Origin: an uncultured Ruficoccus sp.
GTDB taxonomy: Bacteria > Verrucomicrobiota > Verrucomicrobiia > Opitutales > Cerasicoccaceae
Direction of reading: 5' to 3'
DNA: 64,000 nt
Assembly: GCA_965140785.1 (NCBI GenBank)
Contig: OZ223510.1
Coordinates: forward strand, 224,001-288,000
This document shows, in pieces, positions 41,162-59,056 of this stretch (its first letter is position 1; every line of letters starts with the position of its first letter). Position numbers and translations under genes: made by a program. Below the pieces are notes generated by a model. That model did not search any database. It saw only the letters and a program-made list of their open reading frames with translations, and was not told the DNA's origin.

Positions 41162-41263
41162 AGAATATGCCTAAAGTACCCAGACAGCCATCGGGCCGTC
41201 AAAACGAAAGGAGCAGGGACGCTGCCAGTCAGTGAATAAATCCGAAAATGGCCGTCGCAATAA

Positions 41264-41291
41264 ATTAGACATAATGTTTATTGTGCGAAAT
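41264..41291 (-). other. dif-like XerC/XerD recombination site (left attachment site of the prophage)
   Basis: Minus strand ATTTCGCACAA-TAAACA-TTATGTCTAAT: 11-6-11 layout resembling E. coli dif GGTGCGCATAA-TGTATA-TTATGTTAAAT; intergenic, at the host/phage boundary. Confidence 0.8.
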
Positions 41292-41336
41292 TCGCTAGGT
41301 GGAGAAAAAACCGCAAGCTATCTAAGCTGTTGCGGT

Positions 41337-41501
41337 TCAACCTTTAGCACCGTGCTGTTCAAGCAGTCTGGAAATGTGGAAGCGGACCCAATTGGATTCG
41401 GTCCGGCCTTCCTTGGCAGCGACTTCCTTTAAGCGAGCTTTCATTTCCTTGGTTACGACAGCTTGAATGACGGCGGAGTCCTTACCTCGTTCGCCCTTCA
41501 T
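41337..41501 (-). CDS. Ribbon-helix-helix (Arc/CopG-like) repressor
   Basis: 'IQAVVTKEMKARLKEVAAKEGRTESNWVR'; AAGGAG RBS upstream of the ATG at 41501. Confidence 0.7.
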   Translation of the reverse strand: MKGERGKDSAVIQAVVTKEMKARLKEVAAKEGRTESNWVRFHISRLLEQHGAKG

Positions 41502-41554
41502 TGATTCAGAACTCCTTATATAGTTCGTCGGGTTTGTCAATTGTATTGCAGCGG

Positions 41555-41602
41555 GAGTAATACTCTAACATATATGTCGATGTAATCGGGAGTATGACTC
41601 CC
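41555..41602. promoter_or_regulatory. Two palindromic operator-like boxes upstream of the RHH gene
   Basis: GAGTA-A-TACTC (41555-41565) and GGGAGT-ATG-ACTCCC (41588-41602). Confidence 0.45.
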
Positions 41603-41647
41603 AAATACCTCCCCCACGTAGATTGATATGCAACAGGCAGAGCAAAC

Positions 41648-42148
41648 TTACAGCTTCGGCGGAATCAGGGGCAGTTTAGCCCTAATTTCCTCCGGCGTCA
41701 TCCTGCCAGCGTCACCCACTATATGGACAAGCGGTATCCCGGCTGCACTGAATACGGCATCAACGAATTCGTCACGTTGTTTCCGGTCTTCTCTCTGGTG
41801 CGATGCGTCATCCAGTTCGACCGCAAAGGCAATTTCGCTCGGCCCCCGGGTGATGACGAAATCGACGTGTTTCCTGTCAGTTCGAGCACGCATGGAACCA
41901 TACGCTCTACGGTCTTGCGTACCCTTTATGCGGATCACGTCCGCCACTCGCACCTTGCTGTGTATGTGCATGTCTTCGGGCAGGCAGCGTTTGAGCAGGT
42001 GGAAAAGCACGCATTCGTGCCTCGTCAGAAGCCATTTCCGCGCCTCGGCCAGTGTCGTGTCTGCCGCGTTGCCTTCTGGTTTTCGCAAGGCTTTGAGCAT
42101 GGTCGCAATGACCAATAATACCGCAAATCCAATAATGATATAGGTCAT
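41648..42148 (-). CDS. DUF2726 family membrane-anchored protein (nuclease-like fold)
   Basis: N-terminal TM; 'KVRVADVI', 'KHVDFVI', 'VELDDASH', 'RDEFVD..F..AGIPLVH'. Confidence 0.8.
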   Translation of the reverse strand: MTYIIIGFAVLLVIATMLKALRKPEGNAADTTLAEARKWLLTRHECVLFHLLKRCLPEDMHIHSKVRVADVIRIKGTQDRRAYGSMRARTDRKHVDFVITRGPSEIAFAVELDDASHQREDRKQRDEFVDAVFSAAGIPLVHIVGDAGRMTPEEIRAKLPLIPPKL

Positions 42149-42214
42149 GTGCTCAGACTATCCGGTATTTACCAAGCAGTAAAATCCAAAACCACTCAAA
42201 CCGAAGGAACCGAA

Positions 42215-42502
42215 ATGACATCAGAAGAAACGATCCGCCTTACTGAGGCTGCACAATCAATCGGGCTGACAAAATTCCCCGATTTGCAAATGGAAGTCTG
42301 CGACTGGGAAACTCGCGTTTCCTACAGTGAACGCAACGGCGTTGAATACGACCACCGCGGGCAAATTTGCGTTATGCTGTTTGAGCGTCTTGATGAGGCT
42401 AAAGCCCGTCGTCTTTACTTCTCGAATCGGTATCCAGATTGGCGGGTATATCGTCGTGGCAATCGGGTTGTTATCACCCTCAAGGAAAAGGCCGTGGCAT
42501 GA
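42215..42502 (+). CDS. Phage hypothetical protein
   Basis: AAGGA RBS; stop overlaps the next ATG (ATGA). Confidence 0.55.
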   Translation: MTSEETIRLTEAAQSIGLTKFPDLQMEVCDWETRVSYSERNGVEYDHRGQICVMLFERLDEAKARRLYFSNRYPDWRVYRRGNRVVITLKEKAVA

Positions 42503-42900
42503 GTACCCCAAGCGCCCTATCCGCTCTGCGGTCTGCCCGTGCTCAAGTGGATCTGATCCACTGCGGATTACATCATTCTTTCGGTTGCATGGGCGAAGTT
42601 GCCCTGGACGCTATGCGGGATGAATTGCTCTCTTACTTAGAGGCTGAAATTTTGCTCCTCCCCGTGGAGGCGCAAGCGTCGGAACCTTCGGCGGGGGGGC
42701 GGGCAATGAGTGGTATCGAGCCCGCTCCCACACGAGGTTTACCGCGCATGTTCATGCGTTCGGAACCCCGCGACAAGACCGTCTGCTTTGTCCTGACGGA
42801 ACGCGAACGCAAGCGGCTTAGATCTATGGCTAAATCCCAGGGCATCACGGTTTCCGCGCTGTGTGCCGAATGGATCACAGAAAGGCTTTCTGATGCGTGA
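42499..42900 (+). CDS. Phage protein with a C-terminal RHH-like DNA-binding domain
   Basis: 'VCFVLTERERKRLRSMAKSQGITVSALCAEWI'. Confidence 0.5.
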   Translation: MSTPSALSALRSARAQVDLIHCGLHHSFGCMGEVALDAMRDELLSYLEAEILLLPVEAQASEPSAGGRAMSGIEPAPTRGLPRMFMRSEPRDKTVCFVLTERERKRLRSMAKSQGITVSALCAEWITERLSDA

Positions 42901-42992
42901 CAATCGTCACCATCAAGGCGGGAGCGGGAGGTTGGCGAGCACGCCGTCAGCCTCCCGTATTCGTTTTTCACTACACACACCCACGTTGCCCC

Positions 42993-43130
42993 ATGCTTCC
43001 GTATGACGCTCAAGAATTCTTTGTAGGCGTAGGCGCTTGGCTCGCTTTTTTCGGGGCTGCGTGGTGGTCGCAAGTCGCGATCCGTTTTTTCAAACGGATG
43101 TTCGATGCAGCATCGGACATTCCTTCGTAA
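42993..43130 (+). CDS. Small hydrophobic minor coat protein (pVII/pIX-like)
   Basis: 45 aa with a single TM segment, immediately upstream of the major coat gene. Confidence 0.55.
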   Translation: MLPYDAQEFFVGVGAWLAFFGAAWWSQVAIRFFKRMFDAASDIPS

Positions 43131-43158
43131 CCCAACCCAAACCGAAAGGTATCGTATC

Positions 43159-43392
43159 ATGAACAACTGGAAAAACAAGCTCCTCGCTGGCGGTGTCGTT
43201 CTCGCCTCCGGCGTTAGCGCTCACGCTCAGACCACCGGCGTCGATTACTCGGCCTTGCAGAGTGCAGTCACCGGGGAAATCCCTGGCGTTCTGACTGCCG
43301 GTCTGGCCATCGGTGCCGCCGCCGTCGGCCTGCTCGCCGCTCCCAAGGGCGTACGCTTCATCAAGAAGATGTGGTCCGCCATCGCTGGCTAA
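43159..43392 (+). CDS. Major coat protein (pVIII-like)
   Basis: Signal peptide ending AHA, amphipathic segment, TM helix and basic C-terminus 'KGVRFIKKMW'; followed by a terminator. Confidence 0.85.
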   Translation: MNNWKNKLLAGGVVLASGVSAHAQTTGVDYSALQSAVTGEIPGVLTAGLAIGAAAVGLLAAPKGVRFIKKMWSAIAG

Positions 43393-43395
43393 ACC

Positions 43396-43437
43396 GGGGA
43401 GGGGGGCGAATCCCGCCTGCCCCCTACCCTTTTTTTT
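43396..43437 (+). terminator. Intrinsic terminator after the major coat gene
   Basis: G-rich/C-rich stem followed by T8; same position as the central terminator of Ff-like phages. Confidence 0.7.
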
Positions 43438-43440
43438 GCC

Positions 43441-43578
43441 ATGACTGACACGCAATTACTGCAAGAAATTCTGACTCAGGCTGAGTTTGCGAACGCTCAG
43501 CTTCGGGTGATGTTTCAGGCCGAAATTGCAGCGGTCATCATCCTTATTTGGTCAATCTTTTGGGCTCAACTTCGATGA
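43441..43578 (+). CDS. Small TM protein (45 aa), probable virion component; not in the ORF track
   Basis: MTDTQLLQEILTQAEFANAQLRVMFQAEIAAVIILIWSIFWAQLR*; ATGA overlap with the next gene. Confidence 0.6.
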   Translation: MTDTQLLQEILTQAEFANAQLRVMFQAEIAAVIILIWSIFWAQLR

Positions 43579-44762
43579 ACAGGCATCTGTATATACTGTT
43601 CATGCTTTACGCGGCTTATGTTCAAGCCGCTGAGCCGGTAGCTTCATGGTCTGGTGTGGTCACTTCAACCACCAGTTATGGAACATACACCATGAATTGC
43701 AGCTTTGATCTTTTCGGTACAGAGGGCGCTTATTACATCGAACCGAATAGCTTCGATGCAGTAAGAGACGACGGTTATGTCGTTCCCGGTGCCCAATTAT
43801 TCTATGAGCAGATTGAGGGCGGCATTAAGTTTTACCGTGGGGGTTCTATATCTTACTCGGTTCACGAATTATTCGCGTCACAAGACCCCGACCCCGATCC
43901 GGACCCTGACCCTGACCCCGGCGAAGAAACGGACGACGGGCTATATATGCATAATGCGGAGTCGGACGAAATCCATAACGGGACCGATGAGCCTCAGACG
44001 TACATTTACAGCATCGTGCATGAGGATGGCACGGTAGAGACCGGGGAAATCACGCTGCAGCCGGGAGAGTCCGCCACGATCAAGGGCGGTAGCCGATTAG
44101 ACCCCTATTCCATGAGCGTATGGAAGAAAAACCCGGACGGAACGCTTACCAAGGTTGGGGACTATGCGTCCTCAAGTGCTGAGCACACCTCCGACACGCA
44201 ACCGGGCTCAAGCACTCCCAGTGTGACGCATTCGGACGGCTCGACCACATCGGCCCTTGAACCTAATAGCAGAGGCCGCACGGATTCATCAGGGGGCAGT
44301 GCGGACACGGCAATTATCGATGATAACTCAGAGGCCCGGCACCAAGAGCAACTAGAGCAGGACCGCAAAATAGCCGAGGCCGAAAAAGCCGAGTTGCAAC
44401 GCATTCGAAAAGCCATCGGTAAAGACGGGGACGGCTCCGGCGTATCTGCCGACGATGACGAATACCCCGAAGGCCCGGACTGGAGCACGTCCAACATTGA
44501 AGCCCTCGATAACGTTGAGGGCATGATTGATAGTGTGATTGGCAAACTGCCCTCCATCGAAGCCCTGCCGGTCGTCAGCGGTCGTAACTATACCTATGAC
44601 ATCAACGGCGGCGATTTCATGGATATGACGTTCAACTTTACGATCGATCTGACGCAGTACATTTCCGCCATCGAGCTAATCAGGACCTTAGAGGAAGCCC
44701 TGATCATCATCATGTTTATCATCGCTGCCATTCGCATGGTGCGGGGAGGTTTTGCCGGATGA
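43575..44762 (+). CDS. Adsorption/minor coat protein (pIII-like)
   Basis: Signal peptide, beta-rich domains, (DP)n and S/T/G linkers, C-terminal TM anchor. Confidence 0.75.
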   Translation: MNRHLYILFMLYAAYVQAAEPVASWSGVVTSTTSYGTYTMNCSFDLFGTEGAYYIEPNSFDAVRDDGYVVPGAQLFYEQIEGGIKFYRGGSISYSVHELFASQDPDPDPDPDPDPGEETDDGLYMHNAESDEIHNGTDEPQTYIYSIVHEDGTVETGEITLQPGESATIKGGSRLDPYSMSVWKKNPDGTLTKVGDYASSSAEHTSDTQPGSSTPSVTHSDGSTTSALEPNSRGRTDSSGGSADTAIIDDNSEARHQEQLEQDRKIAEAEKAELQRIRKAIGKDGDGSGVSADDDEYPEGPDWSTSNIEALDNVEGMIDSVIGKLPSIEALPVVSGRNYTYDINGGDFMDMTFNFTIDLTQYISAIELIRTLEEALIIIMFIIAAIRMVRGGFAG

Positions 44763-45115
44763 GCATTTTGGGCAAGATGGAAGATAGCATCGGCTGGATG
44801 CAGAAGCTTTCCAAGCCGCTCAAGCTGCTGTTTGCCCCTGTCATCGGTTTTCTGACCGTGGCCTATGCCGTGGTAGCCTATGGGATGACGATGCTTTCAC
44901 GCCTGCTTCTTTGGATCGATAGCCGGGTGGCCGATCTGGACCTTTCCGTGGGAGGGCATCACCTCGATTCGGTCGCAACGGATTTTTGGGTAACGATCAA
45001 TACCTTTATCCCGGTGGACCTCGTCTTTGCCCTCGGAACAACACTGCTTGCTCTCCGGGGCGTCATGGCCGTGGTCCGCATTGTCAAGTCGTGGATTCCA
45101 ACCATGTCCGGCTAG
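44759..45115 (+). CDS. Minor coat protein (pVI-like)
   Basis: 118-aa hydrophobic protein ending 'VRIVKSWIP', located between pIII and Zot. Confidence 0.7.
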   Translation: MSILGKMEDSIGWMQKLSKPLKLLFAPVIGFLTVAYAVVAYGMTMLSRLLLWIDSRVADLDLSVGGHHLDSVATDFWVTINTFIPVDLVFALGTTLLALRGVMAVVRIVKSWIPTMSG

Positions 45116-45117
45116 TT

Positions 45118-46305
45118 ATGAAAGACGCCATCTTCAGAGTCTTTGCCGGTACGCTCGGCAGCTACAAGTCTTATCACGGTGTTGTCGAAGCTCTCGAAAC
45201 CTTGGAGCGCGGCGGTATCGTCATGACGAATATCGAGCTTCGTTGGGACCGCATAAAATACTGGTTCGAAGACGAAAAGGATTTGCTCCTGGACGATAAG
45301 CAATACGTCCACATCGACCCGGAGCAGGCTTCATCGTTCGTGAATCTGTTGGTGAAGGGCGAACGCGATAAGCCGAACAAGCTCATTATCGATGAAGCGG
45401 GCCTTCATCACAACACGATGGACAAGCGACAGATGGACCGCGTCGTGTTGGAAATGATCGTCCACGCCCGTAAGCTTTTCATCGATACGGTTTTCATCGC
45501 TCACCACTTTACCGAGATCCTCGCGCAGATCCGCAACAAGGCTCAAAGCGTCATCTGGTTTCGGGATCTGCAAAAGATTAAATGGCTGGGGATCTCTGTG
45601 CCGGTTCCGGCCTACATCTTTTCGGAAGTCGATGCCCGCAACCCGAAGCTGAAGTATGATTCGGCGTTCCGCTGGAAAAAGAAATTCGTCTATAAGCTCT
45701 ATGTCTCCCATGACATTCAGTCGAAGGCGCTTGAGGTCATCCAGACCAAGCCTTTGATCGAGGTTAAGCGCGTCCAGCATGCTGTAACGAAGTCGGATAT
45801 CCTCCGCCGCTCGGCCAAGCGCTGGGTGCGCCGTCTGGTCTTTGGCGGGGCCATGGTCTGGGCCGGGATGCTCTTTGCCGGCCAAGCCGCGCCCGAGCCG
45901 GCCAGCGTGCCGGCGACTGATTCCAGCCAGGTTAAAACGCCTGAGCCGGTCGCCGCGGCAAAACCTGCGCAGACCGTCGAAGATCCCGCGCCCGCGCCTA
46001 AACCGGATCGCTCGATCAAGTCCGTGTCGTTCATGGGCCGCGCTCGGATGCTGGAGCCGACACGCGGGGATCAGGTCGGTTACTGCACCTTTGATTTCGT
46101 CAGCCTGCGCCTGGGCGACGGTCGCGTCATCCGTGAGACGCATCCCGACTTTGGCGGCTTTCGTCGCTCGGACAATACCGCGCTTATCGCGGGCGAGGTG
46201 TACACCTACAAGCAAGAAGATTTCCCGGCTGATCAGCTGGGCCAAACCAACCACAAAAACACAATCCAACTACTCAAAGATAATGAAACAATTAGTAATC
46301 CGTGA
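45118..46305 (+). CDS. Zot/pI morphogenesis ATPase
   Basis: Walker A 'GTLGSYKS', 'TNI', Walker B 'LIIDEA', 'HARK', a TM segment and a periplasmic tail. Confidence 0.88.
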   Translation: MKDAIFRVFAGTLGSYKSYHGVVEALETLERGGIVMTNIELRWDRIKYWFEDEKDLLLDDKQYVHIDPEQASSFVNLLVKGERDKPNKLIIDEAGLHHNTMDKRQMDRVVLEMIVHARKLFIDTVFIAHHFTEILAQIRNKAQSVIWFRDLQKIKWLGISVPVPAYIFSEVDARNPKLKYDSAFRWKKKFVYKLYVSHDIQSKALEVIQTKPLIEVKRVQHAVTKSDILRRSAKRWVRRLVFGGAMVWAGMLFAGQAAPEPASVPATDSSQVKTPEPVAAAKPAQTVEDPAPAPKPDRSIKSVSFMGRARMLEPTRGDQVGYCTFDFVSLRLGDGRVIRETHPDFGGFRRSDNTALIAGEVYTYKQEDFPADQLGQTNHKNTIQLLKDNETISNP

Positions 46306-46615
46306 CGAAAATATCGAGGTCCAGCATACTGAAGAATCCGTTAAGGATGGTAAGCGTTATCCGTCCTCGATCATGATCACCATCGCCGCCAGCGGCTTTG
46401 ATTCGCAGATGTCGTTCTTCTTGGATATGTCGCCGGAAGCTCTCAAGCTGCTTAATATTGAGGAAGTCGGCACCAGGAAGCGCCACAAGGTAAAGGAAGC
46501 TATATTCGTCATCGCTCCGGGCTTCGGCAAAAGCAACTTCTCGAAGATCCGCGCCGAGCACCTTCAGAAGTTCGACGCCAAGCCCTACGTTGAAAATCCA
46601 CTGGCTGCTGCGTAA
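46283..46615 (+). CDS. Phage protein, possible ssDNA-binding (pV-like)
   Basis: 110-aa beta-rich protein near rep; function inferred from size and context only. Confidence 0.45.
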   Translation: MKQLVIRDENIEVQHTEESVKDGKRYPSSIMITIAASGFDSQMSFFLDMSPEALKLLNIEEVGTRKRHKVKEAIFVIAPGFGKSNFSKIRAEHLQKFDAKPYVENPLAAA

Positions 46616-46951
46616 TGCACCTGTACGACGGTAGCGCACTTGGGGAGGTCGGGCCTATGGGTCCGGCCTCTCTGTCTTTCGGTGCCGACGTTGCCCCTTC
46701 CAATAGAGGCCACCAGCCGCAGGCGGGTCTCCCGTCATCCCGGCTTGACCAAGCTTTAGCTTGGTCCCCTGGCCAACTGTTTTATCCCCCACTGAAAAAG
46801 CTGTATCCAGCTTTTGCTCACCCGTGGCGGTCACGCCACGTCAAACCCCTGAAAACGCGCCAGAGGGGCCACAGAACGCCCCATTTGGCCCTTCTCGTAT
46901 CCCACATCAAAGAAAAAGCCCGCCCTGCGGTAACAGGTCGGGCCTTCACAA

Positions 46952-47896
46952 ATGGAAAATCTAGGAGAATTTTCGATGCACAGCCCTGTACATTCATCAC
47001 AGAATGTCAAGTCTCGAACGAAAGAGGGGCGCAACGAATCGCTCGCCAGCGCGGCCCCGCCGCGCGGCAGCGATTCGGCCGCGCCCCTTCCTTGTCTAGA
47101 AACAAACAACTCAACCGAAAGCTACAGGCCGACCGCCCAAAAAGCCTCTAAATTCATCGTCAATGAGGCGGCCTTAGAGCTCATTCAATCCGAAGGTATA
47201 GAGACAATCCTGTTTACGACGTTGACCTTCCCCCGCCCTGTCACCCTCAAGGAGGCACAGAAGGCATGGAATAGTGCTGCTACCCATGCTTTACGCCCTG
47301 CCATCCCTAAAGCTCTGCGCATCCTGGAGCCTCACAAGACAAAGCAACCGCATTACCACCTCTTGGAGGCCACCGGGAAGGATGTACGCCGGGGGTTCGA
47401 CTTCGAGGCTTACCAGCGGGCAAGGTCCGTTCATTGGGCCAGCGCTGAGGGGCGCAAGGCTACCCGCGAGTATGGGGCCAGTGCCAACGATGACTTGCGC
47501 GAGTCCTGGGCATTTCACCGGCGTTTGGTGCGGTTCGGCTTTGGCCGGTCGGAGGCCGTCCCTATCTACAAAGTCGGGGAAGCCGCTGCCGACTATGCCT
47601 CTAAGTACGTGGCCAAGGAAGATCGACCCGTCGAATACAAGGGCGCTCGGCTGTTCTCGGCTATGAACTGGAAGCCGTCCACCCGGAGAGGCTTTGGGTT
47701 CGTGGACTCGGGCCGGGCTTGGCGGCTGGCGGTCGCACGGATCGCGGAGGACATGGGCTTTACCTCTGAGGCCGACTTTCGCCGGGAGTTCGGCCCCAAC
47801 TGGGCTTGGGGCCTGCGCGGAACCATCTTCAGCATTGCCGAAGAAATCAAAGCCCAATATCGCAAACGGCCCTTAGATGATGCAAAAGGAGTTTGA
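46952..47896 (+). CDS. Rolling-circle replication initiator (HUH endonuclease)
   Basis: Motif 1 'FTTLTF', motif 2 'PHYHLL', motif 3 'YASKY'; start may be 46976. Confidence 0.88.
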   Translation: MENLGEFSMHSPVHSSQNVKSRTKEGRNESLASAAPPRGSDSAAPLPCLETNNSTESYRPTAQKASKFIVNEAALELIQSEGIETILFTTLTFPRPVTLKEAQKAWNSAATHALRPAIPKALRILEPHKTKQPHYHLLEATGKDVRRGFDFEAYQRARSVHWASAEGRKATREYGASANDDLRESWAFHRRLVRFGFGRSEAVPIYKVGEAAADYASKYVAKEDRPVEYKGARLFSAMNWKPSTRRGFGFVDSGRAWRLAVARIAEDMGFTSEADFRREFGPNWAWGLRGTIFSIAEEIKAQYRKRPLDDAKGV

Positions 47897-48149
47897 TTTT
47901 GCCCGCGAATACACCCACGGCCTGCGCCCGGTCGTGTGGGGAGTTCGAAAGCGCCTAAAGGTCGATGAGGTTTACAAGATCGTCCCGGATCACTTGGCCG
48001 ATCTCCCGGCGATCTACGTTGCCTCCCGTGTCCAGGCACGATCAATGGCCCGGTTTTACTCGGCCCTACCGGGAAAGGGGTTCGTGCTTGTCTTTAAGGG
48101 ACGGAAAGTAATTCGAGAACGCAGGCCCAAGGCTATTCCATGGGACTAA
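47877..48149 (+). CDS. Phage hypothetical protein
   Basis: Overlaps the rep stop; basic, 90 aa. Confidence 0.5.
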   Translation: MMQKEFDFAREYTHGLRPVVWGVRKRLKVDEVYKIVPDHLADLPAIYVASRVQARSMARFYSALPGKGFVLVFKGRKVIRERRPKAIPWD

Positions 48150-48249
48150 GTATTGCTTGCTTGCATGTGCACATTCTACGCAATGATGCATAAGTCGTTT
48201 TGTTACTGCGTTTCCTTATTTACATGGTGAATAATAGCCTTAGACTGGC

Positions 48250-48762
48250 ATGAATAACATGAATCGTGTAGCAAAACATCTAGAAATGCACTCGATAGGA
48301 TTGAAGGATGCCGTTGATATTGATTTATTTGGGAGGAGTGCATTCAATAGGTTTTATTATTCTGCTTACTGGACTGTTCGGGATAGCTTGTCGCCGATAC
48401 GACCAAGCATCTCTAAGCAGCCACATAAAAACATGCCCATTTATTTAAAAAACTCCTTCAAGAATTATCTTTTAAAGAAATGTACAGTACTAGAATCTAA
48501 AAAAATAATAAAACCATCTGAATCTAAAAGAATTCAGTCGATAATTCGAAGTCAATTAATGTCGATATCTAGTTCACTTGAAAACGCCTATTACGTTAGA
48601 TGTATTGCAGATTATTACCTTGAAGAAAAAGCCATACTTATTGGAAATAAAATCAGGCTAGGAGGCATGTCCTCTTCAGACGTGTCATCTATTGACACCA
48701 AAGTTAAGTCAGCAACTGATACTTTAGTAAAAACATGTCATGAAAATGGACTTTATCAATAA
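48250..48762 (+). CDS. HEPN-domain protein (retron effector candidate)
   Basis: 'RSAFNRFYYSAY' and 'R..ADY' motifs of HEPN (UPF0332-like) proteins; AT-rich cargo. Confidence 0.75.
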   Translation: MNNMNRVAKHLEMHSIGLKDAVDIDLFGRSAFNRFYYSAYWTVRDSLSPIRPSISKQPHKNMPIYLKNSFKNYLLKKCTVLESKKIIKPSESKRIQSIIRSQLMSISSSLENAYYVRCIADYYLEEKAILIGNKIRLGGMSSSDVSSIDTKVKSATDTLVKTCHENGLYQ

Positions 48763-49477
48763 ACTAGATGATTTCCTTAAGGACTATGCGAATGGGTCAT
48801 ATGATCTAATTGACGTAATAGACTCTCCCGATGGATACATAATTACTATTTCTACGAAACTAAAAGGGAGATCGGATCGATCAAAAAGACTTGTAGTAAC
48901 AAGGCTTTTGGACGAATTTAAAGATGCGTCTAAGGTTATAGTAAGGGAATCTGAAGTTGAATCTAATTTAGAAAAATTACTATTCATACCCATAAAATCT
49001 AGCATTGGGGTCGACCCAATTGGGTTAAACTTTGAAATTGAGAAAAATAAAGCCAAGATTGAATTAACAGTAAAAAATACAGGCTCAGGAAATAATGAAG
49101 ACATTGAGATTAAAATTAAAGATTTAATCCATGGCGTGCTATCGCCAATAGGAATAAGCATTTCAAGCCTGTCAGTTATAGTCAAAAGCGGATCTAAAAT
49201 CCCGAATCCATTGATAATCAAAAGTATTATTGTTTTGGCTCCCGTTGACTTTGAGTCTCTCTATGACTGCATAAATGAGAGATATGGAAGCGAGTATGAG
49301 TTCAACCATAAGGTGCTTAGGCGTATAATAGACGACCTAAGAAAGGAAAAGCTTGTGGTATGGTCGCCAAATGGATATCTTGCCTCTCCTAGGGCCATAG
49401 ACGCGTTGTCTGGCAGTAAGAGTCGTAATTCTCTGGACATTCAAAGAGCGTTAAATATGAAATTTCAGCAATGGTAA
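48740..49477 (+). CDS. Retron-associated protein with a C-terminal winged-HTH
   Basis: 'LRRIIDDLRKEKLVVW..NGY' wHTH-like segment; overlaps the HEPN gene and precedes the ncRNA and RT. Confidence 0.65.
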   Translation: MKMDFINKLDDFLKDYANGSYDLIDVIDSPDGYIITISTKLKGRSDRSKRLVVTRLLDEFKDASKVIVRESEVESNLEKLLFIPIKSSIGVDPIGLNFEIEKNKAKIELTVKNTGSGNNEDIEIKIKDLIHGVLSPIGISISSLSVIVKSGSKIPNPLIIKSIIVLAPVDFESLYDCINERYGSEYEFNHKVLRRIIDDLRKEKLVVWSPNGYLASPRAIDALSGSKSRNSLDIQRALNMKFQQW

Positions 49478-49483
49478 ATTTCA

Positions 49484-49671
49484 CCAGGATAGGTGGTGTC
49501 GATGTCACTGCGAAAGGGTGCATCACCCTTGTTTGCAGAGGTCTGGCACAGAAGGTCCGGCATCTTACTGGATGCCGCCTCCTTCGTAGCCGGCATCCAG
49601 TAAGATGCCGACGCTCAACGGAAGTATCATATAGCTTCGCTAAATGACAATGCATGCACCACCTATCCTGG
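49484..49671 (+). ncRNA. Retron msr-msd RNA
   Basis: 15-bp perfect a1/a2 inverted repeat (CCAGGATAGGTGGTG 49484-49498 / CACCACCTATCCTGG 49657-49671); msr stem-loops (AAGGGTG-CAT-CACCCTT); msd 20-bp perfect hairpin 49558-49610. Confidence 0.85.
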
Positions 49672-50639
49672 GTATTTTTGGAAATGACCTAAAACGACTC
49701 GAAGCAAATTTCGAGTTTATTAGGACAAACGAGTTTGATCAATTAAAGCGACTATATGGAAAGGGACTTCCTCCAGTTGTCTCTGCGCATTCTGTAGCCT
49801 TAATTTTCGGATATTCGCCTCAATTCGTTGGGTTAATGATGAAGCGTCCAAATCGCTTTTATAGAACATTTCAGATTCCAAAAGGTAAAAACAAAGTTAG
49901 AAAAATAGAAGCTCCGCGTGTATCTTTAAAAATAATTCAAAAATGGATCGGACATCATATTGCTCGCCAAATTAAACTTCCAAGCCATGTGTGCGGTTTC
50001 GTACCAGGAAAAAGCATAATAGATGGCGCAATGGCTCATTGTGGATGTGAGTGGTTATTTCAAACGGATATAAGCAATTTCTTCCAGAGTACACGGTTCT
50101 ATGCTGTTACTAATGCTCTCAGAACAATAGGTTATTGCGAGCGTGGTTCAGTGACATTAGCTAGGCTCTGCTGCTTAAATGACAACTTAGCGCAAGGAGC
50201 TCCAAGCAGTCCTGCCCTATCTAATCTTGTTTTCAGAAAAATAGACAGCGAGTTAATCCAATTTTGCTCAATGCACAATTATACATACACAAGGTATGCG
50301 GATGATATCGCGGTCTCAGGAAGTGGAAAATATCCATCTGAGGTTAAAAGATCGATCGAGAATATTATTGATTCCCATGACTACAAAATCGCTACTCTGA
50401 AAAGTAAGGTCTCTATCGCACCAGCGAGAAGGAAAGTATATGGCTTACTTGTAAATGGTAAGGTACCACGCCTTACAAAAGGATACCGTAACAGAATCCG
50501 GGCCTTGAAACATTTATCAGAGCATGGACGCATCAAAGAGGACGATTATTCAACAATTATGGGGCATATATCGTATGCAGAGAGTGTCGAAGCTAGGATT
50601 GCCGACATCTTATCGAAGCAAAATGAGTCGGATCGGTAA
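49644..50639 (+). CDS. Retron reverse transcriptase
   Basis: 'YRTFQIPK', 'R.IEAP..LKIIQ', 'GFVPG', region X 'GAMAH', 'DISNFF', 'QGAPSSP', 'YADD', region Y 'VYGL'. Confidence 0.93.
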   Translation: MTMHAPPILGIFGNDLKRLEANFEFIRTNEFDQLKRLYGKGLPPVVSAHSVALIFGYSPQFVGLMMKRPNRFYRTFQIPKGKNKVRKIEAPRVSLKIIQKWIGHHIARQIKLPSHVCGFVPGKSIIDGAMAHCGCEWLFQTDISNFFQSTRFYAVTNALRTIGYCERGSVTLARLCCLNDNLAQGAPSSPALSNLVFRKIDSELIQFCSMHNYTYTRYADDIAVSGSGKYPSEVKRSIENIIDSHDYKIATLKSKVSIAPARRKVYGLLVNGKVPRLTKGYRNRIRALKHLSEHGRIKEDDYSTIMGHISYAESVEARIADILSKQNESDR

Positions 50640-50700
50640 AACGATTGACGCATTTTCGATTTATCTCGACATTTAATGATAAGAAATTCTAATAATTCAA

Positions 50701-50798
50701 GCCGTGGACATTTGTAAATCTTGCGGGTAGAATATAGGGCTTCGCACGTGCTGCGTATCCATTTCTGGATATTGGAAAAGCTGTTTATTGTGCGTATT
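50701..50798 (+). repeat. dif-half-site repeat, copy 1 (right end of the prophage)
   Basis: CGTGGACATT..TAGAATATAGGG..TCGCACGTGCTG-hairpin-TGTTTA-TTGTGCG. Confidence 0.8.
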
Positions 50799-50834
50799 CG
50801 TATGTCTTTATGTTGACATAGCTAACGCCAATCA

Positions 50835-51308
50835 GTGACTTGGGCCTACCATCTCATGAAGCCTAATATCCCTACTCTAGCAAAGGTTATACTCTGGTTG
50901 TCATTGTTAGCTGGTGGCTGGAACGCGATCATTGGCGGTGTTTTTTTATCTTCCCCACCTCAGCAGAATTCATTGCTGGATGTCGATGGGATGAAAAACG
51001 TTTTGATCCTCTCCAGCCTCCTTGGGCTATACTTCCTGATCGTATCTATTTCAGCACTCCAGAGAAAGGAAGCAGGACGAAAGGGCTACCTCGTCGGACT
51101 GGTCCTGATGATTTTAGGCACCCTTGCTTGGTATGGCTATAATGTGGCAAGTGCACCTAAGCCGCTTATTATTATTATTGTAGGTGCGGTTGGAATGGTC
51201 ATCCCGATTGGATTGCTGGTGATCCTCTACAGGTATTTCAGCTCACAAACTGTCCGCGAAGCTTACCAGGCAGAGCCAACTACCTGCACACAGGATTACA
51301 AAAACTAA
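50835..51308 (+). CDS. Four-TM membrane protein (cassette A); start may be the ATG at 50856
   Basis: Four hydrophobic segments; the stop codon lies within repeat copy 2. Confidence 0.7.
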   Translation: MTWAYHLMKPNIPTLAKVILWLSLLAGGWNAIIGGVFLSSPPQQNSLLDVDGMKNVLILSSLLGLYFLIVSISALQRKEAGRKGYLVGLVLMILGTLAWYGYNVASAPKPLIIIIVGAVGMVIPIGLLVILYRYFSSQTVREAYQAEPTTCTQDYKN

Positions 51309-51414
51309 TGCCGTGAGGCGTGGACATTCGTGGGACTGGCGAGTAGAATATAGGGTCTCGTACGTGCTGGATCGGGATTTTTGAATCTTAGCGATCCTGT
51401 TTATTGTGCGGTTG
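51291..51414 (+). repeat. dif-half-site repeat, copy 2
   Basis: CAGGATTACAAAAACTAATGCCGTGAGGCGTGGACATT..TAGAATATAGGGTCTCGTACGTGCTG..GCGATCC-TGTTTA-TTGTGCG. Confidence 0.85.
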
Positions 51415-51478
51415 TTGGGTTTGTATAATTAAGCAACCTTGACGATTCGTACATTTCTGAGCATTCCCAATATACCTT

Positions 51479-51814
51479 ATGGCCATCAATAAATCGGATA
51501 TCCATCAGCAGGCAAAACTCGCATTGGCTGCAATCAAAGCAGCGTATAACGCTGAAGATGATGATTCCGATGTGACATTATACGTCGCGCATCATCTGGC
51601 AGAGGTCGATGCTTCCTACTGGAATAATAGATTCCAAACCAATCAGCCAGCCCCCTCGCAGATACTTGACGCGCTGATTCTTTGTTCAGACATTGAAGAG
51701 ATAGACAACCTTGATAGCCTGGACTTTACTCTGCCGGGCCGTGTGACCGACTATCTGCTTTGCGTTACGTTCAATGAAGACGGAGAAGTCGAGGACATCG
51801 CCATGGAAAGCTGA
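51479..51814 (+). CDS. Acidic DUF2004-like protein (cassette B)
   Basis: 'YVAHH', 'DFTL...TDYLLCVTFNEDGEVEDIAMES'; the terminal 'MES' is recalled as typical of DUF2004. Confidence 0.65.
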   Translation: MAINKSDIHQQAKLALAAIKAAYNAEDDDSDVTLYVAHHLAEVDASYWNNRFQTNQPAPSQILDALILCSDIEEIDNLDSLDFTLPGRVTDYLLCVTFNEDGEVEDIAMES

Positions 51815-51849
51815 TTTTGGCCTCGAAACGATCCGCAACTATCACTACG

Positions 51850-51973
51850 CAGGATTACAAAATCTAATGCCGTGAGGCGTGGACATTCCCACTGCTACGT
51901 ACTAAAATATAGGGTCTCGCACGTGCTGAATCAGGATTTCTGAATCCTAGCGATCCTGCTTATTGTGCGAGTT
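51850..51973 (+). repeat. dif-half-site repeat, copy 3
   Basis: CAGGATTACAAAATCTAATGCCGTGAGGCGTGGACATT..AAATATAGGGTCTCGCACGTGCTG..GCGATCC-TGCTTA-TTGTGCGA. Confidence 0.85.
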
Positions 51974-52012
51974 GTCCATTCGGGAAGCTTGCAATCTTGA
52001 CGATCAAATACA

Positions 52013-53381
52013 GGACCACGTAAAGATATCCATAAAATTAGGAAGCAAATAAGGATGTTCATGATAATTAAATTATTAAATATTCAAAGTATTTTACTAA
52101 AAAAAATAGTTTTCAATAACAAAAAGAATAACTTCAAATTTAATAATAGCTCCTTTATTATTATACACATCACAATAATTTGGTGCAGAAAAAATAGTAA
52201 TAACTGCTGGAAATTCATTAGACCCATTCCATTTATACATCTTATACCCATCAATCTAAGCTTCATGTGCCCTAATTACCGAAAGCAATCCACATGCCTT
52301 TAAAAACTTATTAACAGCTTCCATTCTAATAATTAATTCATTATTTAATTAATTAACCCATAAATAAATGAACACCCTCTAACTTCATTTGCCTTAAAGT
52401 CTTAAGGTAAATGTCCATCTTCTGATTCAATTGGATCCGACCATATTAAATCACTAAAAGCAAAAATAAATTGAATTTATAAACTAAAAAACCAAAGTAA
52501 TCCAGATTTTGGTGGTTCAGTGTATCTATCGATTTTTTATAAATCTGCTAACGATCTTAAAGCTGGAGAGATCCCACCATGAATACCTATAAACTTCCCA
52601 TTAATAATAGAACATAAAGGAATCATCTCAAATGATTCCATCATTATCTCATAAATTTCTTAATCGTATTTATAGATACCTTTTTTTAAATTAAATTTTA
52701 AATGGGGTAAAAACATTCATCACGGAAGTTAAAATATGTTGTCATTTAACGACATTCATGGTTACCACGAATAAATTGTATTGTTGTTGGATAGTTTAAC
52801 TTTAATTTAACTATTATTATTAAATCAGATTACCTTAAGAGAATAAAGAAGCACTATCACTTCAATTGAAAAAGAACCTCTATCCACAAAATCTCCAAGA
52901 AATAAATACCTTTAATAAAAATATATCATGCGATTATTTTTACTTTGTATTTTCTGGTTTTCCACCAATATCCAAAATTTTAACTAAATCATAATATTAT
53001 CTTCAATTGAAATTAATAAAATTAAAAGGAATAACCCATGAATATCCCCAACTACTGTTACAGGGTCATCAATTTTCAATATATTACTTTCACTCTCTAT
53101 ATAAAATTAAAATTCAATAAAAATTATCAATTTACTAAAAATATTATTCGTTGCTGAGACTAATTTAATCAAATCTTCCTTTTTAATTCTTCCTTCCTGA
53201 CTTAAATGATCCTTAAGTAATCTCCAGTCAGGTTTTCCTTTAAAAAGCTCAGAAAATATATTAGTAATATCCTACCTTGCAATGAAATAGGAAACATTAA
53301 TGAGGATTCTAATGGCCTATGCGGTGGAGCTCTTACTTTCTTTACTTGGCGATCATTAAAAGGATCTTTTAAAGGCTACAT
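52013..53381 (-). CDS. Calcineurin A (PP2B) catalytic subunit; multi-exon, 3' truncated at the junction
   Basis: With TAR=Gln: '[15 protein letters not shown]', 'GDIHGQYYDL', 'FLGDFVDRG', 'RGNHECRQ', 'HGGISP', 'AHEAQ', 'FSAPNYC', '[15 protein letters not shown]'. Confidence 0.9.
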
Positions 53382-53830
53382 TATTTTTATTGTAATTATT
53401 TTACTTTTATTTTTTTATCAGTTTTCTAATTTAAATTACAAGTTTATTTTATTTAATTTTGCTCAAAAAAAAGTTTTTCTTAGAATAATAATTCTTTAGC
53501 TTTGTTAATAAAAAAACAAAAATTTATTTTTATTATTATTTATAATACTTATTTTTCCAAATTGAATTTATTTATTTCTAACAGAATAATTTATTATATA
53601 AATTCATTAAATTTTTAACAGAATAAAGTAAAATTAAATAAATTTTTTCTATGCAACACCCCTCAGTAATCATAACTTTCTTTAATTATTCATATAGATA
53701 ATTTATCCTCTCTACCAAACAGACCCTACCTAAATAATGCCACCTTAGGTTTTTTTAATTATCTAAATTTTTTGAATTTATTTACAATTATTTCTTTAAG
53801 ATTTCGCCATAAATATAGCCTCCATCAATA

Positions 53831-53898
53831 TAGCCTGAATATCCTCTCTAGCCTGAATATCCTCTCTAGCCTGAATATCCTCTATAGCCTGAATATCC
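53831..53898. repeat. Tandem repeat, about 4 x 18 bp (TAGCCTGAATATCCTCTC)
   Basis: Directly visible; reads (GYSGQR)n on the minus strand with TAG=Gln. Confidence 0.8.
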
Positions 53899-54082
53899 TA
53901 TATATTATGACTAAAAACCTTAATTTTCAGCTCCACCAATCTAATCATACCCTCCATAAGTTTTCCGAAGGCCAGTCATTGAAGAACCATTAAGGCCAAT
54001 AACACATATTTAAAATCTTCCACCTCCTGATAATTAATTTCCTCTGGATAAGGAAGCCAATTATAATTTTTAGATCTCTAAA

Positions 54083-56190
54083 ATGAATGAAAAGATTATA
54101 GTAATAATTAATTTATAATTGAGTTAAACTTTTTTTTTTGTAAGGAATAAAAAAGAAGTTTAGCTGAATAAGAACGTTTATTACAGGATGCTTAAAATTA
54201 GGTGAGAATGGAATTTATAATTGTTTATTTTTAGATTGATTATTTGTAGCATTAAATTGAATAATAAACTTCAGAAAATTCTAATTATAAAGAAACACTT
54301 AAGAAAATGTATATGATTTATGTATAGCAATAAAAATAGCTAGAAGTTTCCTTAATTTTTTATTTTAAATTTAACTAAGAAATCAAAATCAACTGAAATT
54401 GATCTTTAATAATAAAATTCTTCAATGAATGAAAAGAATTGTGAATTTAATGTAAAAAGCTTCTTAAATTTATTGCTAAATTTTCTAGATGAATATTAAA
54501 AATATGATAAATGATCAAGAGCATATGGTTAATTAATATAATTAACAAAACATGATGCATTAAGTTAAAATAATTATAATTAAAAATTAATTTTTAGAAT
54601 GAAATAAAAAATATGACAACTCAATTATAAGATAAACAAATTGTATAAAAACTATTTTATTTAATTATAAACTAGGAAACTCAAGAATTAAAAAGAAAAA
54701 TAAACGATCTTTTAGATTTAAAAAGAAGATTAGAAGACGAAAACTCATCATTGTAAATTTATAATTTTAATAATAATATCAAAGACGCTTTACACTGGAT
54801 AACCAACGTGCTGCCTTTGAAATAGATTGCAAGGAAAGGTAACTCTAAATTTTATTCTTAATTTTACCCAAAAAAGATAAGTAAAATTTGATTAAATAAC
54901 AGCCTGCACAAGAGATGAAATGAATATCCTTAGAATGGAACGCGATGACGCATTTCATAGGCTTGCAGGATTAGCTGATGATGTAATATATATTTAATAT
55001 ATTTCTTTAAAAATTAATAAACAAGAATAAATAATAATTCGAGCAAATTAAATTCTTAGAAGTTGAATTAGCAAGAGCTCGTGGACATGCAGGACCGTAA
55101 CAATAATAATACTCAAATTATGCTCCTCCTCAAGTTGAAATGCCACGTTCTGCGACTCAATCTTCAAACTAAGTAATTTTCTTTCAGTAAATAATAAATC
55201 AATAGGATTGGCTTTAATAAGAAAATTAATAGCTTAAAATGGAAAATGAAAAGCTCAAAAGACAATTAGAAGAAATGCATAAAAGTGAGCTCCTAAAGGA
55301 TGATTAAATAAGATCTTTTTCTTAAAACCCCGAGAGAGCCAAAATGGTTAACTTTACTCCTTAAGAAACAGCACTCAGTACCAATATTCCAGGAAAATTG
55401 GATGATGAATTTATGATTAATATTACGAGTAATTATTTTATAAATAATTTATATGATTTTAGGGGGATTATTAGAGTTAGTTACATTTAAGAGAGAGGCA
55501 ATAACTAATATTATATTTGAAATTTATGTTCGGTCTATTAATCATGCAAATATTAAAAAATAGTTTAATTGTTTTGTAATTATATTAATTTTGTCTTTAG
55601 AAATTCCTTAATATTGTTTATTCTTAATCTGAAAGAATTAAAAGAAAAATATTGGAAAGGGCTAGTTCTTACACTTGAAGCTTATGAAAGGCAAATTTTT
55701 TATTAGTTTTAGAGCTTTTTTATAGATTAAGAAAATTAGCTCGATAATTAACTGCAATTCAAGGAATTCAATAAAGATATCCAAACTTTTATAATAAACT
55801 CAGTTTAGCTGTAGGGTTATTTATTAATTTATCCAGTTATTATTTAATTTAGAAAAATATTAAATGAAAATGTTGATTTCCGAGATAATATAAATAAGTG
55901 GATTGAAGGTACTTTGGCAAATACTATTGGGAAAAAAATTCATGAAAAGCATGAAAAAAATAGAGTAAATTTAATTTTAGAGACTAAATAATTTTTTAAA
56001 GGAATTTTTATTTTTATTCAGATTACTTACAATTAAGTACAGAATTCGTTATCCTTTATAGGGAAAGTCGTTTAATATAGATTTGGATTTAGATAATTTC
56101 CTAGAAAATAAAATTTGTGCTTCTTTAAGAAAGTAAGGCTTTATTTTTAATAATAATAATTTAGAGTGTTAAAAATGGATTTATGAGGAT
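54083..56190 (+). CDS. Putative multi-exon coiled-coil protein (boundaries approximate)
   Basis: Purine-rich exon-like blocks (e.g. 'RDEMNILRMERDDAFHRLAGLADD') separated by GT..AG AT-rich introns. Confidence 0.35.
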
Positions 56191-56280
56191 GAAACTTTTT
56201 TTATAATATAAAATTTATTTATTCCTTTTTTTTTAAACTCTAAATTATTTAAAAAATTTTTATTTTAATTGTTTGAATAC

Positions 56281-57901
56281 TCAACACTTTTTTTTTTCCT
56301 CCTCTTAAATATGTGGATGTGCAACAGTAAATGTTTCATTCACTACTGTGGAAGGACTAAATGTATCAACAATTTTTTAAGAATCAGCCCATAAGCTCTA
56401 AATTTCAAAAATCTGAATACATTTATAACTTAGTTCCTAAAAATCCAATAATAAATTTTTCTAATTTTATAAATTAAACTTATTAGGATTCATCATTTGA
56501 TTTAAATTTTATTTCTTTTATTAAAGGATCAGCAACATAAATTTCAGTCTAAAATCCAATTCTTTCATAAATAGAAACATTAGTATTATAAATTGAAAGA
56601 GCACCAAAATCACTCTTATAATCAACAACCACAAATATACTAGTGATTAATGTTAAAATTAAATAATTTTTTTACGCTGGGACATCATTCATTTTCGTAA
56701 TAATATTTGTGACTTTGCAAGAAGCTATTTTATTTTTATTTCTTCCCTCAACTAATTCTGATAGACTCGCAATTTAATAATCTTTATATTATTCACTTTA
56801 TCCTGGAGTCTTGATTGAAGGGATATTTTTTATCATCATTGTCAATTATTTTTATTTAATTTTTCCCTTAAAAAAACAGCTAAATTATTAAGCAAAAATA
56901 AATTAATAACTTTATTTGCAATTAAATTTTGCATACTAGATACTTTTTAATAAATCGATTTCACAATTTAATCAATTTAAAACTCTTTATCCATTTCTCC
57001 TGCTTTCTAATATTCCTTCATTGCTAATTAATAATCCTCTAGATAATTATAAATCTAACATTAAAAAAAATAAAAATTTAATAAACAAAAATCTTACAGT
57101 TGCACGATTATAATGCATATCAGGATTCTTTTCATCCTTTAAACGGTTTTCAGCTTAATTATAAGCTTTTAACGCTAACTAAAGTTCATTTATTGTTTTC
57201 ATATTCACAAAGAAATTGCTCATATAAGCATTACCTAAAACATACCAGCTCTCCCCATCATTAAGATCTAAATTAAGAGCCTCCTTTGCGATATCAATTG
57301 ATTTTTAGACATTTTATTATCTTACTGAATCTATATCAACAATTTTTTATATATATACTAATTAATTAATTAACCTTAGCCAAGTTATCTCAAAATTATT
57401 GAAATACTTCTCAGTGCAACTTTATTTCGGCCACACTATTCATTTGAACCTTCAAAACATTTATACGCGCCTTCATAATCTTTCTTTTTCCATAGAATAT
57501 GTCCTATTTTATTAATTTAGATTTAGATTTTTTACCCAATGTATTCCAGCAATCAGAATTTAAGGGATTTAATTTTAACTTTAATTTATTTAAGTAGAAA
57601 TAGTAAAATTACTGATTTAGAAAGAGATTCTTCAGCTTATTTTGTATATTATGGGAGGATGTCCATTAATTTTCCTTTTAAATACATTGCTTTTCCCTTT
57701 TCATTTTTACTGATTTCTAAATAATGTTAAATTAAATTTAAAAAATGCACATTAATCGAGAAGTTAATCTAATTGCTTATTTATTTCATTTATTTTTGGT
57801 TTAATTTTTTCATTTGATTCTAATGAAAACTCTTTTTTTTAAGCTTCAATAAGTTCTGTGATTTCCTTTTCAAATTAATCAATTGTTTTCGTTTCTTCCA
57901 T
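56281..57901 (-). CDS. TPR protein, TTC5-like (multi-exon)
   Basis: 'DGESWYVLGNAY...ALKAYNQAE...NPDMHYNRAT' resembles the TTC5 TPR segment. Confidence 0.7.
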
Positions 57902-58020
57902 TTAAGTAAAATAAATTTGTTTTTTGATTTAAATTTCAAATTTTTTAAATAAAAATTTAACAAAATATTTATTTTGGGGCAATTAGTTTTTGTTTTTAAT
58001 TATTTAATTTAAAAAAAACA

Positions 58021-58866: not shown

Positions 58867-59056
58867 TTTTCCTTTATTTAAAGAAATTATTTTTATTTTT
58901 GAATTTATTTAAATTTAAATTAAATTGTTTGATAATATTTAGCTTATTAAGAAAATTTTAATTTAAAATCTAAAATAAAATAAGAGATAAAATTTAATTT
59001 AGAAACCTCAATTCAAAATAAATTCAAAATCAAAATAAATTATAAAATTAATTTTA

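Follow-up and report, generated by a model that had tools for sequence, protein, structure and literature searches.

Does the AT-rich segment at positions 48250-50639 of the DNA analysed here encode a complete retron, and does that retron belong to the filamentous prophage at whose right end it lies? The whole stretch, hereafter the window, comprises 64,000 nucleotides (nt) from the assembly of an uncultured Ruficoccus sp. (GCA_965140785.1; contig OZ223510.1, positions 224,001-288,000 of the forward strand). Type IX retrons are anti-phage systems that combine a reverse transcriptase, a small hybrid of DNA and RNA, and a toxin that cuts RNA. It is very probable that the locus represents an intact canonical type IX retron, placed in the slot for variable cargo of an inovirus prophage of ~9.5 kb (41.29-50.78 kb) between the replication protein gene (Rep) with the adjoining ORF90 and a repeat close to the attachment (att) site. 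The assignment to type IX is based on matches to family models and to the protein chains of Retron-Kva2, on the order and spacing of the genes, and on a conserved non-coding RNA (ncRNA) with covarying pairs.

The retron genes and their RNA

The segment contains three open reading frames (ORFs) and a structured RNA region, with the following features:

48250-48762, + strand: HEPN-like ORF, 170 amino acids (aa)
48740-49477, + strand: winged-helix (WH) / KH-HTH ORF, 245 aa, sharing 23 nt with the HEPN ORF
49484-49671, + strand: msr-msd ncRNA, delimited by inverted repeats, fold and covariation
49484-49498, + strand: a1, a perfect 15-nt inverted repeat with a2
49514-49530, + strand: msr stem-loop, an alignment block common to relatives
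49558-49610, + strand: msd hairpin with 23-nt arms (49558-49580 and 49588-49610) and a CCTTCG tip
49621-49638, + strand: small hairpin just 5' of the reverse transcriptase (RT) start
49644-50639, + strand: retron RT ORF, 331 aa
49657-49671, + strand: a2, falling within the first RT codons

The order of HEPN gene, overlapping WH gene, msr-msd and RT gene is that of type IX retrons, and the gap between the WH and RT ORFs measures 166 nt. The original prediction had described an AT-rich operon of HEPN, winged helix-turn-helix (wHTH), ncRNA and RT genes; its coordinates proved to be exact, and the GC content of the segment is 0.387, against 0.552 in the phage backbone (41292-48149) and 0.616 in the host part.

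The placement of the RT in type IX relies on the ranking of hidden Markov models (HMMs) and of PDB chains. The PADLOC model RT_IX matched the protein with an E-value of 1.9e-117 and 389.9 bits, covering positions 3-314 of the 317 in the model; the runner-up was RT_III-A with 248.5 bits. The top PDB match was the RT of Retron-Kva2 (36ht_A; 5.2e-71, 242.7 bits), with Ec86 next (5e-31, 111 bits). Pfam recognised the RT as RVT_1 (69.9 bits) and was silent on both accessory proteins. The motifs YADD, GAxxH and VYG, named for the RT in the original prediction, are present as YADD at residues 218-221, GAMAH ending in H132 and K-V-Y-G at 264-267. The YADD motif is intact and aligned with that of Kva2 (Kva2 residues 221-224), and in 31 aligned RTs residues R217 to D221, H132, K264, V265 and G267 are invariant, A129 being nearly so.

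The product of the first gene was matched by the PADLOC model HEPN_IX (1.7e-29) and aligned without gaps, over residues 12-134, with the HEPN protein of Retron-Kva2 (36ht_I; 2.9e-12). Residues H59 and R117 are aligned with Kva2 H64 and R122, which constitute the active site according to the accessible part of the 2026 preprint on the type IX Retron-Kva2. The protein is of the type IX effector kind, lacking an Rx4-6H motif and keeping the His and Arg of the dimeric active site.

The WH subunit was matched by HTH_IX (1e-18) over residues 31-240. Its AlphaFold (AF2) model, obtained with 40 positional homologues as input, has a predicted local distance difference test score (pLDDT) of 89.8 and a predicted TM-score (pTM) of 0.54, and comprises two alpha-beta-beta-alpha-beta domains (~1-70 and 72-149) and, behind them, a wHTH of five helices with a beta-hairpin (150-245). 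This predicted domain order is the layout published for the Kva2 WH subunit, which likewise has 245 aa. The Foldseek matches of the model include NusA KH domains (E 1.7e-4), C-terminal domains of MamM cation transporters (target-normalised TM-score up to 0.78) and, at rank 24, the Retron-Eco1 effector 8qbl_E, and they agree with the comparisons drawn in the Kva2 preprint. Thus, type IX models of PADLOC match all three proteins, as was to be expected if a HEPN + HTH + RT architecture corresponds to type IX, and the PADLOC check proposed together with that claim came out in its favour for RT_IX, HEPN_IX and HTH_IX alike. This supports the view that RT, HEPN protein and WH subunit form a retron type IX set.

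A structured ncRNA had been predicted upstream of the RT gene, and both folding and covariation bear this out. The RNA fold of 49480-49676 has an energy of -101.1 kcal/mol, compared with -58.3 +/- 4.0 kcal/mol for 200 shuffled sequences, none of which equalled it (z = -10.8). The region 49479-49684 is alignable with the equivalent region in 37 relatives, namely those of the 83 related loci described below whose RT match begins at residue 5 or earlier. The blocks common to the relatives are the msr stem-loop, TGCGAAGG, CACAGAAGG, the long CCTTCG-tipped msd hairpin and the small hairpin preceding the RT gene. RNAalifold predicted 25 pairs, with compensatory changes in 22 of them. The a1/a2 helix was not recovered by RNAalifold on this alignment because the 5' end is poorly aligned; a direct search at the equivalent place found inverted repeats of at least 9 nt, differing in sequence, in most relatives and none in some loci. 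An Rfam scan of 40000-53000 at E <= 1 returned no retron family.

A protein search gave 885 RT homologues at E <= 1e-30. The relatives used for comparison came from an alignment-based RT scan and comprise 78 loci in named genomes and 5 IMG/VR loci on viral contigs of 23-48 kb, 83 in all; scans of IMG/VR with a single RT or pI protein found no relatives. Upstream sequence of 1450 nt or more was available before the RT in 73 loci, 65 of which have a tblastn match to the HEPN protein; the predicted HEPN start has a median of -1389 in these loci and is at -1394 in the window, both counted from the RT start. The match is missing in the other 8 loci (L016, L032, L040, L060, L067, L076, L081 and L085). 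An ORF of 225-290 aa ends 129-175 nt before the RT in 63 of the 83 loci, and the WH gene of the window ends at -167. According to the accessible part of Mestre et al. (2020), type IX comprises a HEPN gene and an HTH gene overlapping by ~8 bp, both upstream of the retron module; the overlap of 23 nt found here differs from that description.

The carrier prophage, its cargo slot and its dif-like ends

The features of the carrier element, from its left to its right end, are as follows:

41263-41291, + strand: left dif-like site (attL) between host malQ and the prophage, with a canonical-looking arm for XerD, TGTTTA at the centre and an XerC arm reading TTGTGCG...
41337-41540, - strand: ribbon-helix-helix (RHH; CopG/Arc-like) repressor-like gene; PF07878 E 6.8e-4, 19.8 bits, under the 26-bit cut-off; PHROGs matches CopG-like and Arc-like
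41648-42148, - strand: DUF2726 protein; PF10881 92.6 bits
43105-43392, + strand: inovirus major coat protein (pVIII-like); PF05356 Phage_Coat_B 25.9 bits, cut-off 23.5; phrog_2186 2.8e-10
43548-44762, + strand: putative pIII-like minor coat/adsorption protein, 404 aa, judged by its place, its size, hydrophobic stretches at both termini and an Asp-Pro linker; no family match
44759-45115, + strand: putative pVI-like small membrane protein, from position alone; no family match
45118-46305, + strand: pI / Zot-like morphogenesis ATPase; PF05707 46.3 bits, cut-off 20.3; phrog_197 3.4e-14; phrog_1675 'protein I of M13'
46283-46615, + strand: 110-aa ORF; no PHROGs or PADLOC match
46952-47896, + strand: putative HUH rolling-circle Rep; PF23343 REP_ORF2-G2P 22.8 bits, under the 27.8 cut-off
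47877-48149, + strand: ORF90, the last backbone gene before the cargo, with a homologous ORF after Rep in the sister prophage of genome G013
50678-50798, + strand: 117-nt repeat and site R1, ending in the dif-like site 50771-50798 with a degenerate XerD arm; right end of the retron element

The pI/Zot-like ATPase is a hallmark gene of inoviruses. In this element, both it and the coat protein scored above the Pfam cut-offs and the PHROGs matches agree, which supports a filamentous (inovirus) prophage as the carrier, as had been proposed. A small hydrophobic ORF is listed after the coat protein among the backbone genes. The Rep motifs FTTLTF, PHYHLL and YASKYVAKE were read by eye in the translation, and the G013 homologue of Rep scores 26.4 bits. 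The 110-aa ORF could be the pV-like gene named in the original prediction. No match to an integrase was found with Pfam and PHROGs among the ORFs of the element that were scanned. The RHH gene adjoins the XerC-arm side of the left site, and its homologue comes after the right site in G013. The DUF2726 protein, located in the left arm of the prophage and kept in the G013 prophage, also shows a weak match to REase_MTES_1575. The region 46904-46979 on the - strand, which lies directly upstream of the start of Rep and overlaps it, contains a GC-rich hairpin with a U-tail and the only matches of the Rfam scan, both sub-threshold, to the antisense RNAs sar (29 bits, gathering threshold 43) and ctRNA_pGA1; it could be an antisense regulator or a terminator.

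The surroundings of the retron were compared with 15 other genomes of the same family, of which G013 and G012 belong to the same genus. A pI homologue is encoded in 6 of the 15, with 79% and 76% identity in two same-genus genomes, and RT_IX at E <= 1e-60 was found in none. The G013 prophage has a collinear order: left site, the genes for DUF2726 and the structural proteins, then Rep and ORF90 (DNA homology reaching window position 48007), and the 117-nt repeat with its site. Between ORF90 and the repeat, G013 holds ~1.35 kb with ORFs of 112, 66 and 181 aa (L093 7234-8362, - strand), and at the position of this other cargo the window carries the 2.5-kb retron. The 181-aa ORF is HepT-like (PF01934 25.2 bits, cut-off 23.5), with an N-terminal hydrophobic helix and an RNAAVH (Rx4H) motif. 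In G012 the site follows directly after Rep and there is no cargo. Between Rep and the retron, no extra dif-like site with up to 2 mismatches was detected. Since G013 holds other cargo and G012 none, and no site intervenes, the retron lies in a variable cargo slot by the att region. It had been placed between rep and the right att site and regarded as cargo of a filamentous prophage; both statements agree with the coordinates of Rep and of the right dif-like site and with the other or missing cargo of the sister prophages.

The left site reads ...TTAGACATAA-TGTTTA-TTGTGCG..., and its arms resemble those for XerD and XerC in the E. coli dif site. Its 27-nt pattern gave 1 match, with 0 expected, and over 34 nt the site matches the left end of the G013 sister prophage with 94% identity. 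The 4.36-Mb assembly has 3 copies of the 13-mer core TGTTTATTGTGCG, none of them outside this 10 kb (41275, 50782 and 51398). A single right att site had been claimed; three were found, and to the right of R1 the contig contains the following features:

50835-51308, + strand: ORF157, hydrophobic, 157 aa; no family match
51294-51414, + strand: repeat and site R2, with the dif-like site 51387-51414
51479-51814, + strand: ORF111, 111 aa; no family match
51853-51973, + strand: repeat and site R3, with the dif-like site 51946-51973

The TGTTTA centre and the TTGTGCG arm are common to R1-R3, and the other arm is degenerate. The further copies of the 117-nt repeat are 66-70% identical to the first and are spaced by 616 and 559 nt; the R1 repeat has its homologue at the right end of the G013 prophage, with 74.6% identity over 118 nt. 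The one-ORF units between the right repeats look like remnants or mini-elements of a tandem array of Xer sites. The repeats also carry a kept promoter-like element, TGGACA-17-TAGAAT (50705-50733 in the first), aimed across the site into the next ORF. An interpretation of the 117-nt repeats as integron attC sites was dropped, as the repeats end in the core of the left dif-like site and the G013 locus lies at a skew peak.

The cumulative GC skew of G013, followed over 400 kb, has its peak at 2.885-2.925 Mb, the position of the prophage. The contig of the window itself (C39) has a positive GC skew over ~250 kb that fades toward the site and thus displays only the approach to a terminus. The genome encodes XerD (364 bits, cut-off 329.6) and a second Xer-like recombinase (271 bits, under the cut-off). 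The gene of the latter is located at 5088-5963 of contig C19, ~5 kb from the contig start, and possibly encodes XerC. Because no integrase of its own was matched and dif-like sites at the terminus flank it, the prophage is most likely an Xer-dependent integrative element at dif, at the terminus of replication.

Several findings weigh against an intact retron carried as cargo by an Xer-integrated inovirus. The abrupt fall of GC content from 0.55 to 0.39 at ~48150 shows a recent acquisition of the retron and bears on the packaging of the enlarged genome. A promoter and terminator scan found promoter-like sites at chance level (8, with 8.6 expected). The family score of Rep remains under its cut-off, and no ssDNA-binding protein (a protein binding single-stranded DNA) or secretin was identified among the ORFs of the element with Pfam and PHROGs. 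No circular attP joint was present among the Logan contigs matching the locus, and the right chromosomal junction of the prophage is missing from the window because the contig from 52014 onwards is unrelated DNA. The G012 prophage (L094 6150-14813) is inverted relative to the malQ / dif-RHH unit and lies between two sites of opposite orientation, an arrangement that is not explained by a simple model of Xer integration. Concerning the retron proteins, the closest non-self RT relative is 50% identical and the WH subunit only 14-22% identical to its positional homologues. The pTM of the WH model is 0.54, and a phmmer search of the WH subunit against PDB chains gave no match at E <= 1, the sequence being too diverged for a match with Kva2. 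The Kva2 entry 36ht is absent from the Foldseek matches of the WH model (library to 2026-04-08).

Some of these points would also fit another history: an integrated, possibly defective prophage would have received the retron as a passenger, and the retron would be chromosomal defence DNA in a decaying array of dif sites, never packaged or moved by the phage. The GC step from 0.552 to 0.387 and the two further remnant-like units on the right side are compatible with decay of this kind, but every ORF of the backbone is open, and the prophages of G013 and G012 are collinear with the element. The missing secretin, ssDNA-binding protein and attP joint point in the same direction as the surroundings of the other 83 type IX loci. 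There, 11 proteins of the window used in tblastn gave 0 matches to inovirus genes, and a pI HMM built from 7 family homologues gave 0 matches at E <= 1 among 6,770 ORFs; with queries as narrow as these, such genes may nevertheless occur at those loci. However, the retron lies exactly at the position of the other cargo of G013, bounded by the conserved ORF90 and the att-proximal repeat and with no additional dif-like site setting it apart from Rep, and defence systems in variable accessory loci of filamentous prophages are described in the accessible parts of published work. A passenger of this kind is therefore rather unlikely, and a retron carried as prophage cargo is the preferred reading.

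Known systems and possible role

Three type IX preprints of July 2026 (bioRxiv 10.64898/2026.07.14.738597, 10.64898/2026.07.11.737809 and 10.64898/2026.07.14.737667) describe the experimentally studied Retron-Kva2 (from Klebsiella variicola), Sen3 and Yin1. According to their accessible parts, the RT, the multicopy single-stranded DNA (msDNA) and the WH/KH-HTH subunit form a higher-order assembly that occludes the HEPN dimer. The triggers reported there are a phage exonuclease, the PD-(D/E)XK nuclease B14T and the DNA-binding protein D5 of T5, and the freed HEPN cleaves tRNAs (and rRNAs) and arrests the cell, which amounts to defence by abortive infection. The window locus resembles these systems in the order HEPN, overlapping WH, msr-msd and RT, in the long msd hairpin, and in the H/R pair and YADD; with Kva2 it also shares the length of the WH subunit and its three-domain layout. 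The features essential in the preprints that were checked here are all present: YADD, the H/R pair, the N-terminal region of the RT, the C-terminus of the WH subunit and the msd stem-loop. In contrast to Kva2, Sen3 and Yin1, the host is a verrucomicrobium and not a member of Pseudomonadota, and the carrier is an inovirus at dif.

By homology, we infer that the mechanism would be that of Retron-Kva2, Sen3 and Yin1. The RT would copy the msd hairpin into msDNA, and the RT, msDNA and WH subunit would assemble around HEPN dimers, blocking the H59/R117 active site. Release of the HEPN would follow when the msDNA is cut or bound by a protein from an infecting phage, and the HEPN would then cleave tRNAs and rRNAs and arrest the infected cell. 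The lysogen would in this way gain abortive-infection defence against other phages, and the resident filamentous phage would be sheltered too.

Retrons are reportedly tripartite toxin-antitoxin (TA) systems, as the title of a paper by Bobonis et al. has it, and this raises the question of whether the chief role of the retron is addiction, i.e., the killing or arrest of cells from which the Xer-integrated element or its episome has been lost; this would stabilise the phage at dif, from where Xer recombination might otherwise remove it. The HEPN is a sequestered toxin according to the accessible parts of the type IX preprints; in the sister phage this slot holds another HEPN toxin, a HepT-like one; and recombination sites in direct repeat lie on both sides of the element. 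Still, the type IX systems published so far, as far as the accessible texts go, defend by abortive infection, and although the two roles are not exclusive, addiction as the main role seems very improbable.

It is also conceivable, yet decidedly unlikely, that the retron is adapted to a filamentous way of life. The hairpin of its msDNA could be a decoy for the HUH Rep nickase or the ssDNA-binding protein of competing inoviruses, or it could be silenced by proteins of the resident phage, with inovirus exclusion and/or addiction as the outcome. If true, this would be a trigger class new for type IX, and the cargo slot would be a general exchange point of HEPN toxins for verrucomicrobial inoviruses. 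The idea of the original prediction that the resident phage must avoid triggering its own retron is speculation. Nevertheless, the locus poses the question of how a single-stranded DNA phage with rolling-circle replication coexists with a system that senses proteins acting on hairpin single-stranded DNA.

Retrons on filamentous phages are known. According to the accessible parts of the published work, the Pseudomonas filamentous phage Pf4 carries a "5' retron element", a retron is present in 2 of 12 Pf phages, PAO1 is listed with Retron I-B, and filamentous prophages of Vibrio have variable loci with defence systems, retrons included. On the same partial texts, the likeness consists in a chronic filamentous prophage whose accessory locus, at one end of the genome, holds a retron or some other system of abortive infection; the differences are that PAO1 has Retron I-B and the window type IX, and that Pf phages are located at tRNA genes and the present element is flanked by dif-like sites. 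These flanks, together with the lack of an integrase match, suggest that host Xer recombinases are used here, unlike in Pf. A further comparison is with integrative mobile elements exploiting Xer recombination (IMEX), the Xer-dependent filamentous phages at dif, e.g., the CTX/TLC/VGJ arrays of Vibrio cholerae. Features in common are the lack of an integrase match, dif-like sites in direct repeat (one with a good XerD arm, the others degenerate), tandem units and, in G013, a locus at the skew peak; the conserved 117-nt att-proximal repeat with its promoter-like element and the one-ORF units may set the present element apart.

Type IX loci are often found on (pro)phages and plasmids, across 68 genera, according to the accessible part of Carabias et al. 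No type IX retron on an inovirus or in Verrucomicrobiota was found in the literature searches made, where Table S1 and Fig. S1A of Carabias et al. may list such carriers. Among 50,697 deposited phage records, tblastn with the RT found only other retron types with at most 33% identity, and tblastn with pI gave no match at 1e-5. The locus is a fresh example of known things, a type IX retron and a retron on a filamentous phage, and not a new kind of system, and it leaves the knowledge of retrons and inoviruses unchanged. It does provide a well-delimited natural type IX retron outside Pseudomonadota, on a small filamentous prophage of the Xer type. As this slot is empty or holds another HEPN-type cargo in the sister prophages, these form with the locus a comparative set for the swapping of defence cargo among inoviruses.

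Contiguity and the end of the contig

A verrucomicrobial host had been predicted, and the host flank is in accord with it: the malQ product (4-alpha-glucanotransferase) is 85% identical to a protein of a Verrucomicrobiota metagenome-assembled genome and 82% and 81% identical to Ruficoccus proteins. The right-hand chromosome flank is absent from the window; after the three att-like repeats the contig turns ciliate-like:

52014-64000: chimeric ciliate-like tail, GC content 0.231, reaching the end of the contig, outside the element

Under the ciliate code this tail contains frames for PPP-phosphatase, mitochondrial-carrier, ankyrin and B-box-like proteins that are open only when TAA and TAG are read as Gln. 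The Logan contigs end at 52013 and resume at 52014, and run X3, which belongs to another study with another organism label, has 52014-53416 without the bacterial part. From 52014 onwards (~276 kb of the contig), contig C39 is misjoined ciliate-like nuclear DNA. Contig C19, likely the continuation of the dif locus, has the counterpart of the G013 right flank at its very first bases. For users of the assembly, it should be kept in mind that the "right flank" of the prophage is not bacterial.

With the same contig chimeric at 52013/52014 and the GC content of the retron different from that of both neighbours, one may ask whether the link between retron segment and prophage is an assembly error, too. 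However, a Logan contig of run X1 spans 42694-51391 with 0 differences, and this supports the contiguity of phage, retron, R1 and ORF157, although it may stem from the same reads as the assembly. Homologues of ORF90 and of the 117-nt repeat also occur in the same order in G013, and the 13-mer att core links 41275 with 50782 and 51398. An artificial joining of retron and prophage is thus barely credible, and the retron is best regarded as a genuine part of the element.

In run X2 of the same study as X1, phage pieces within 43409-47700 have ~20 base differences, and pieces of the retron and R1 (within 49801-51162) are identical to the window. One contig of this run joins 44081 to 49413 on opposite strands, with a depth of 9.7. 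The assembly also contains other contigs of low GC content, namely C28 (0.284), C41 (0.382), C9 (0.392) and C44 (0.404).

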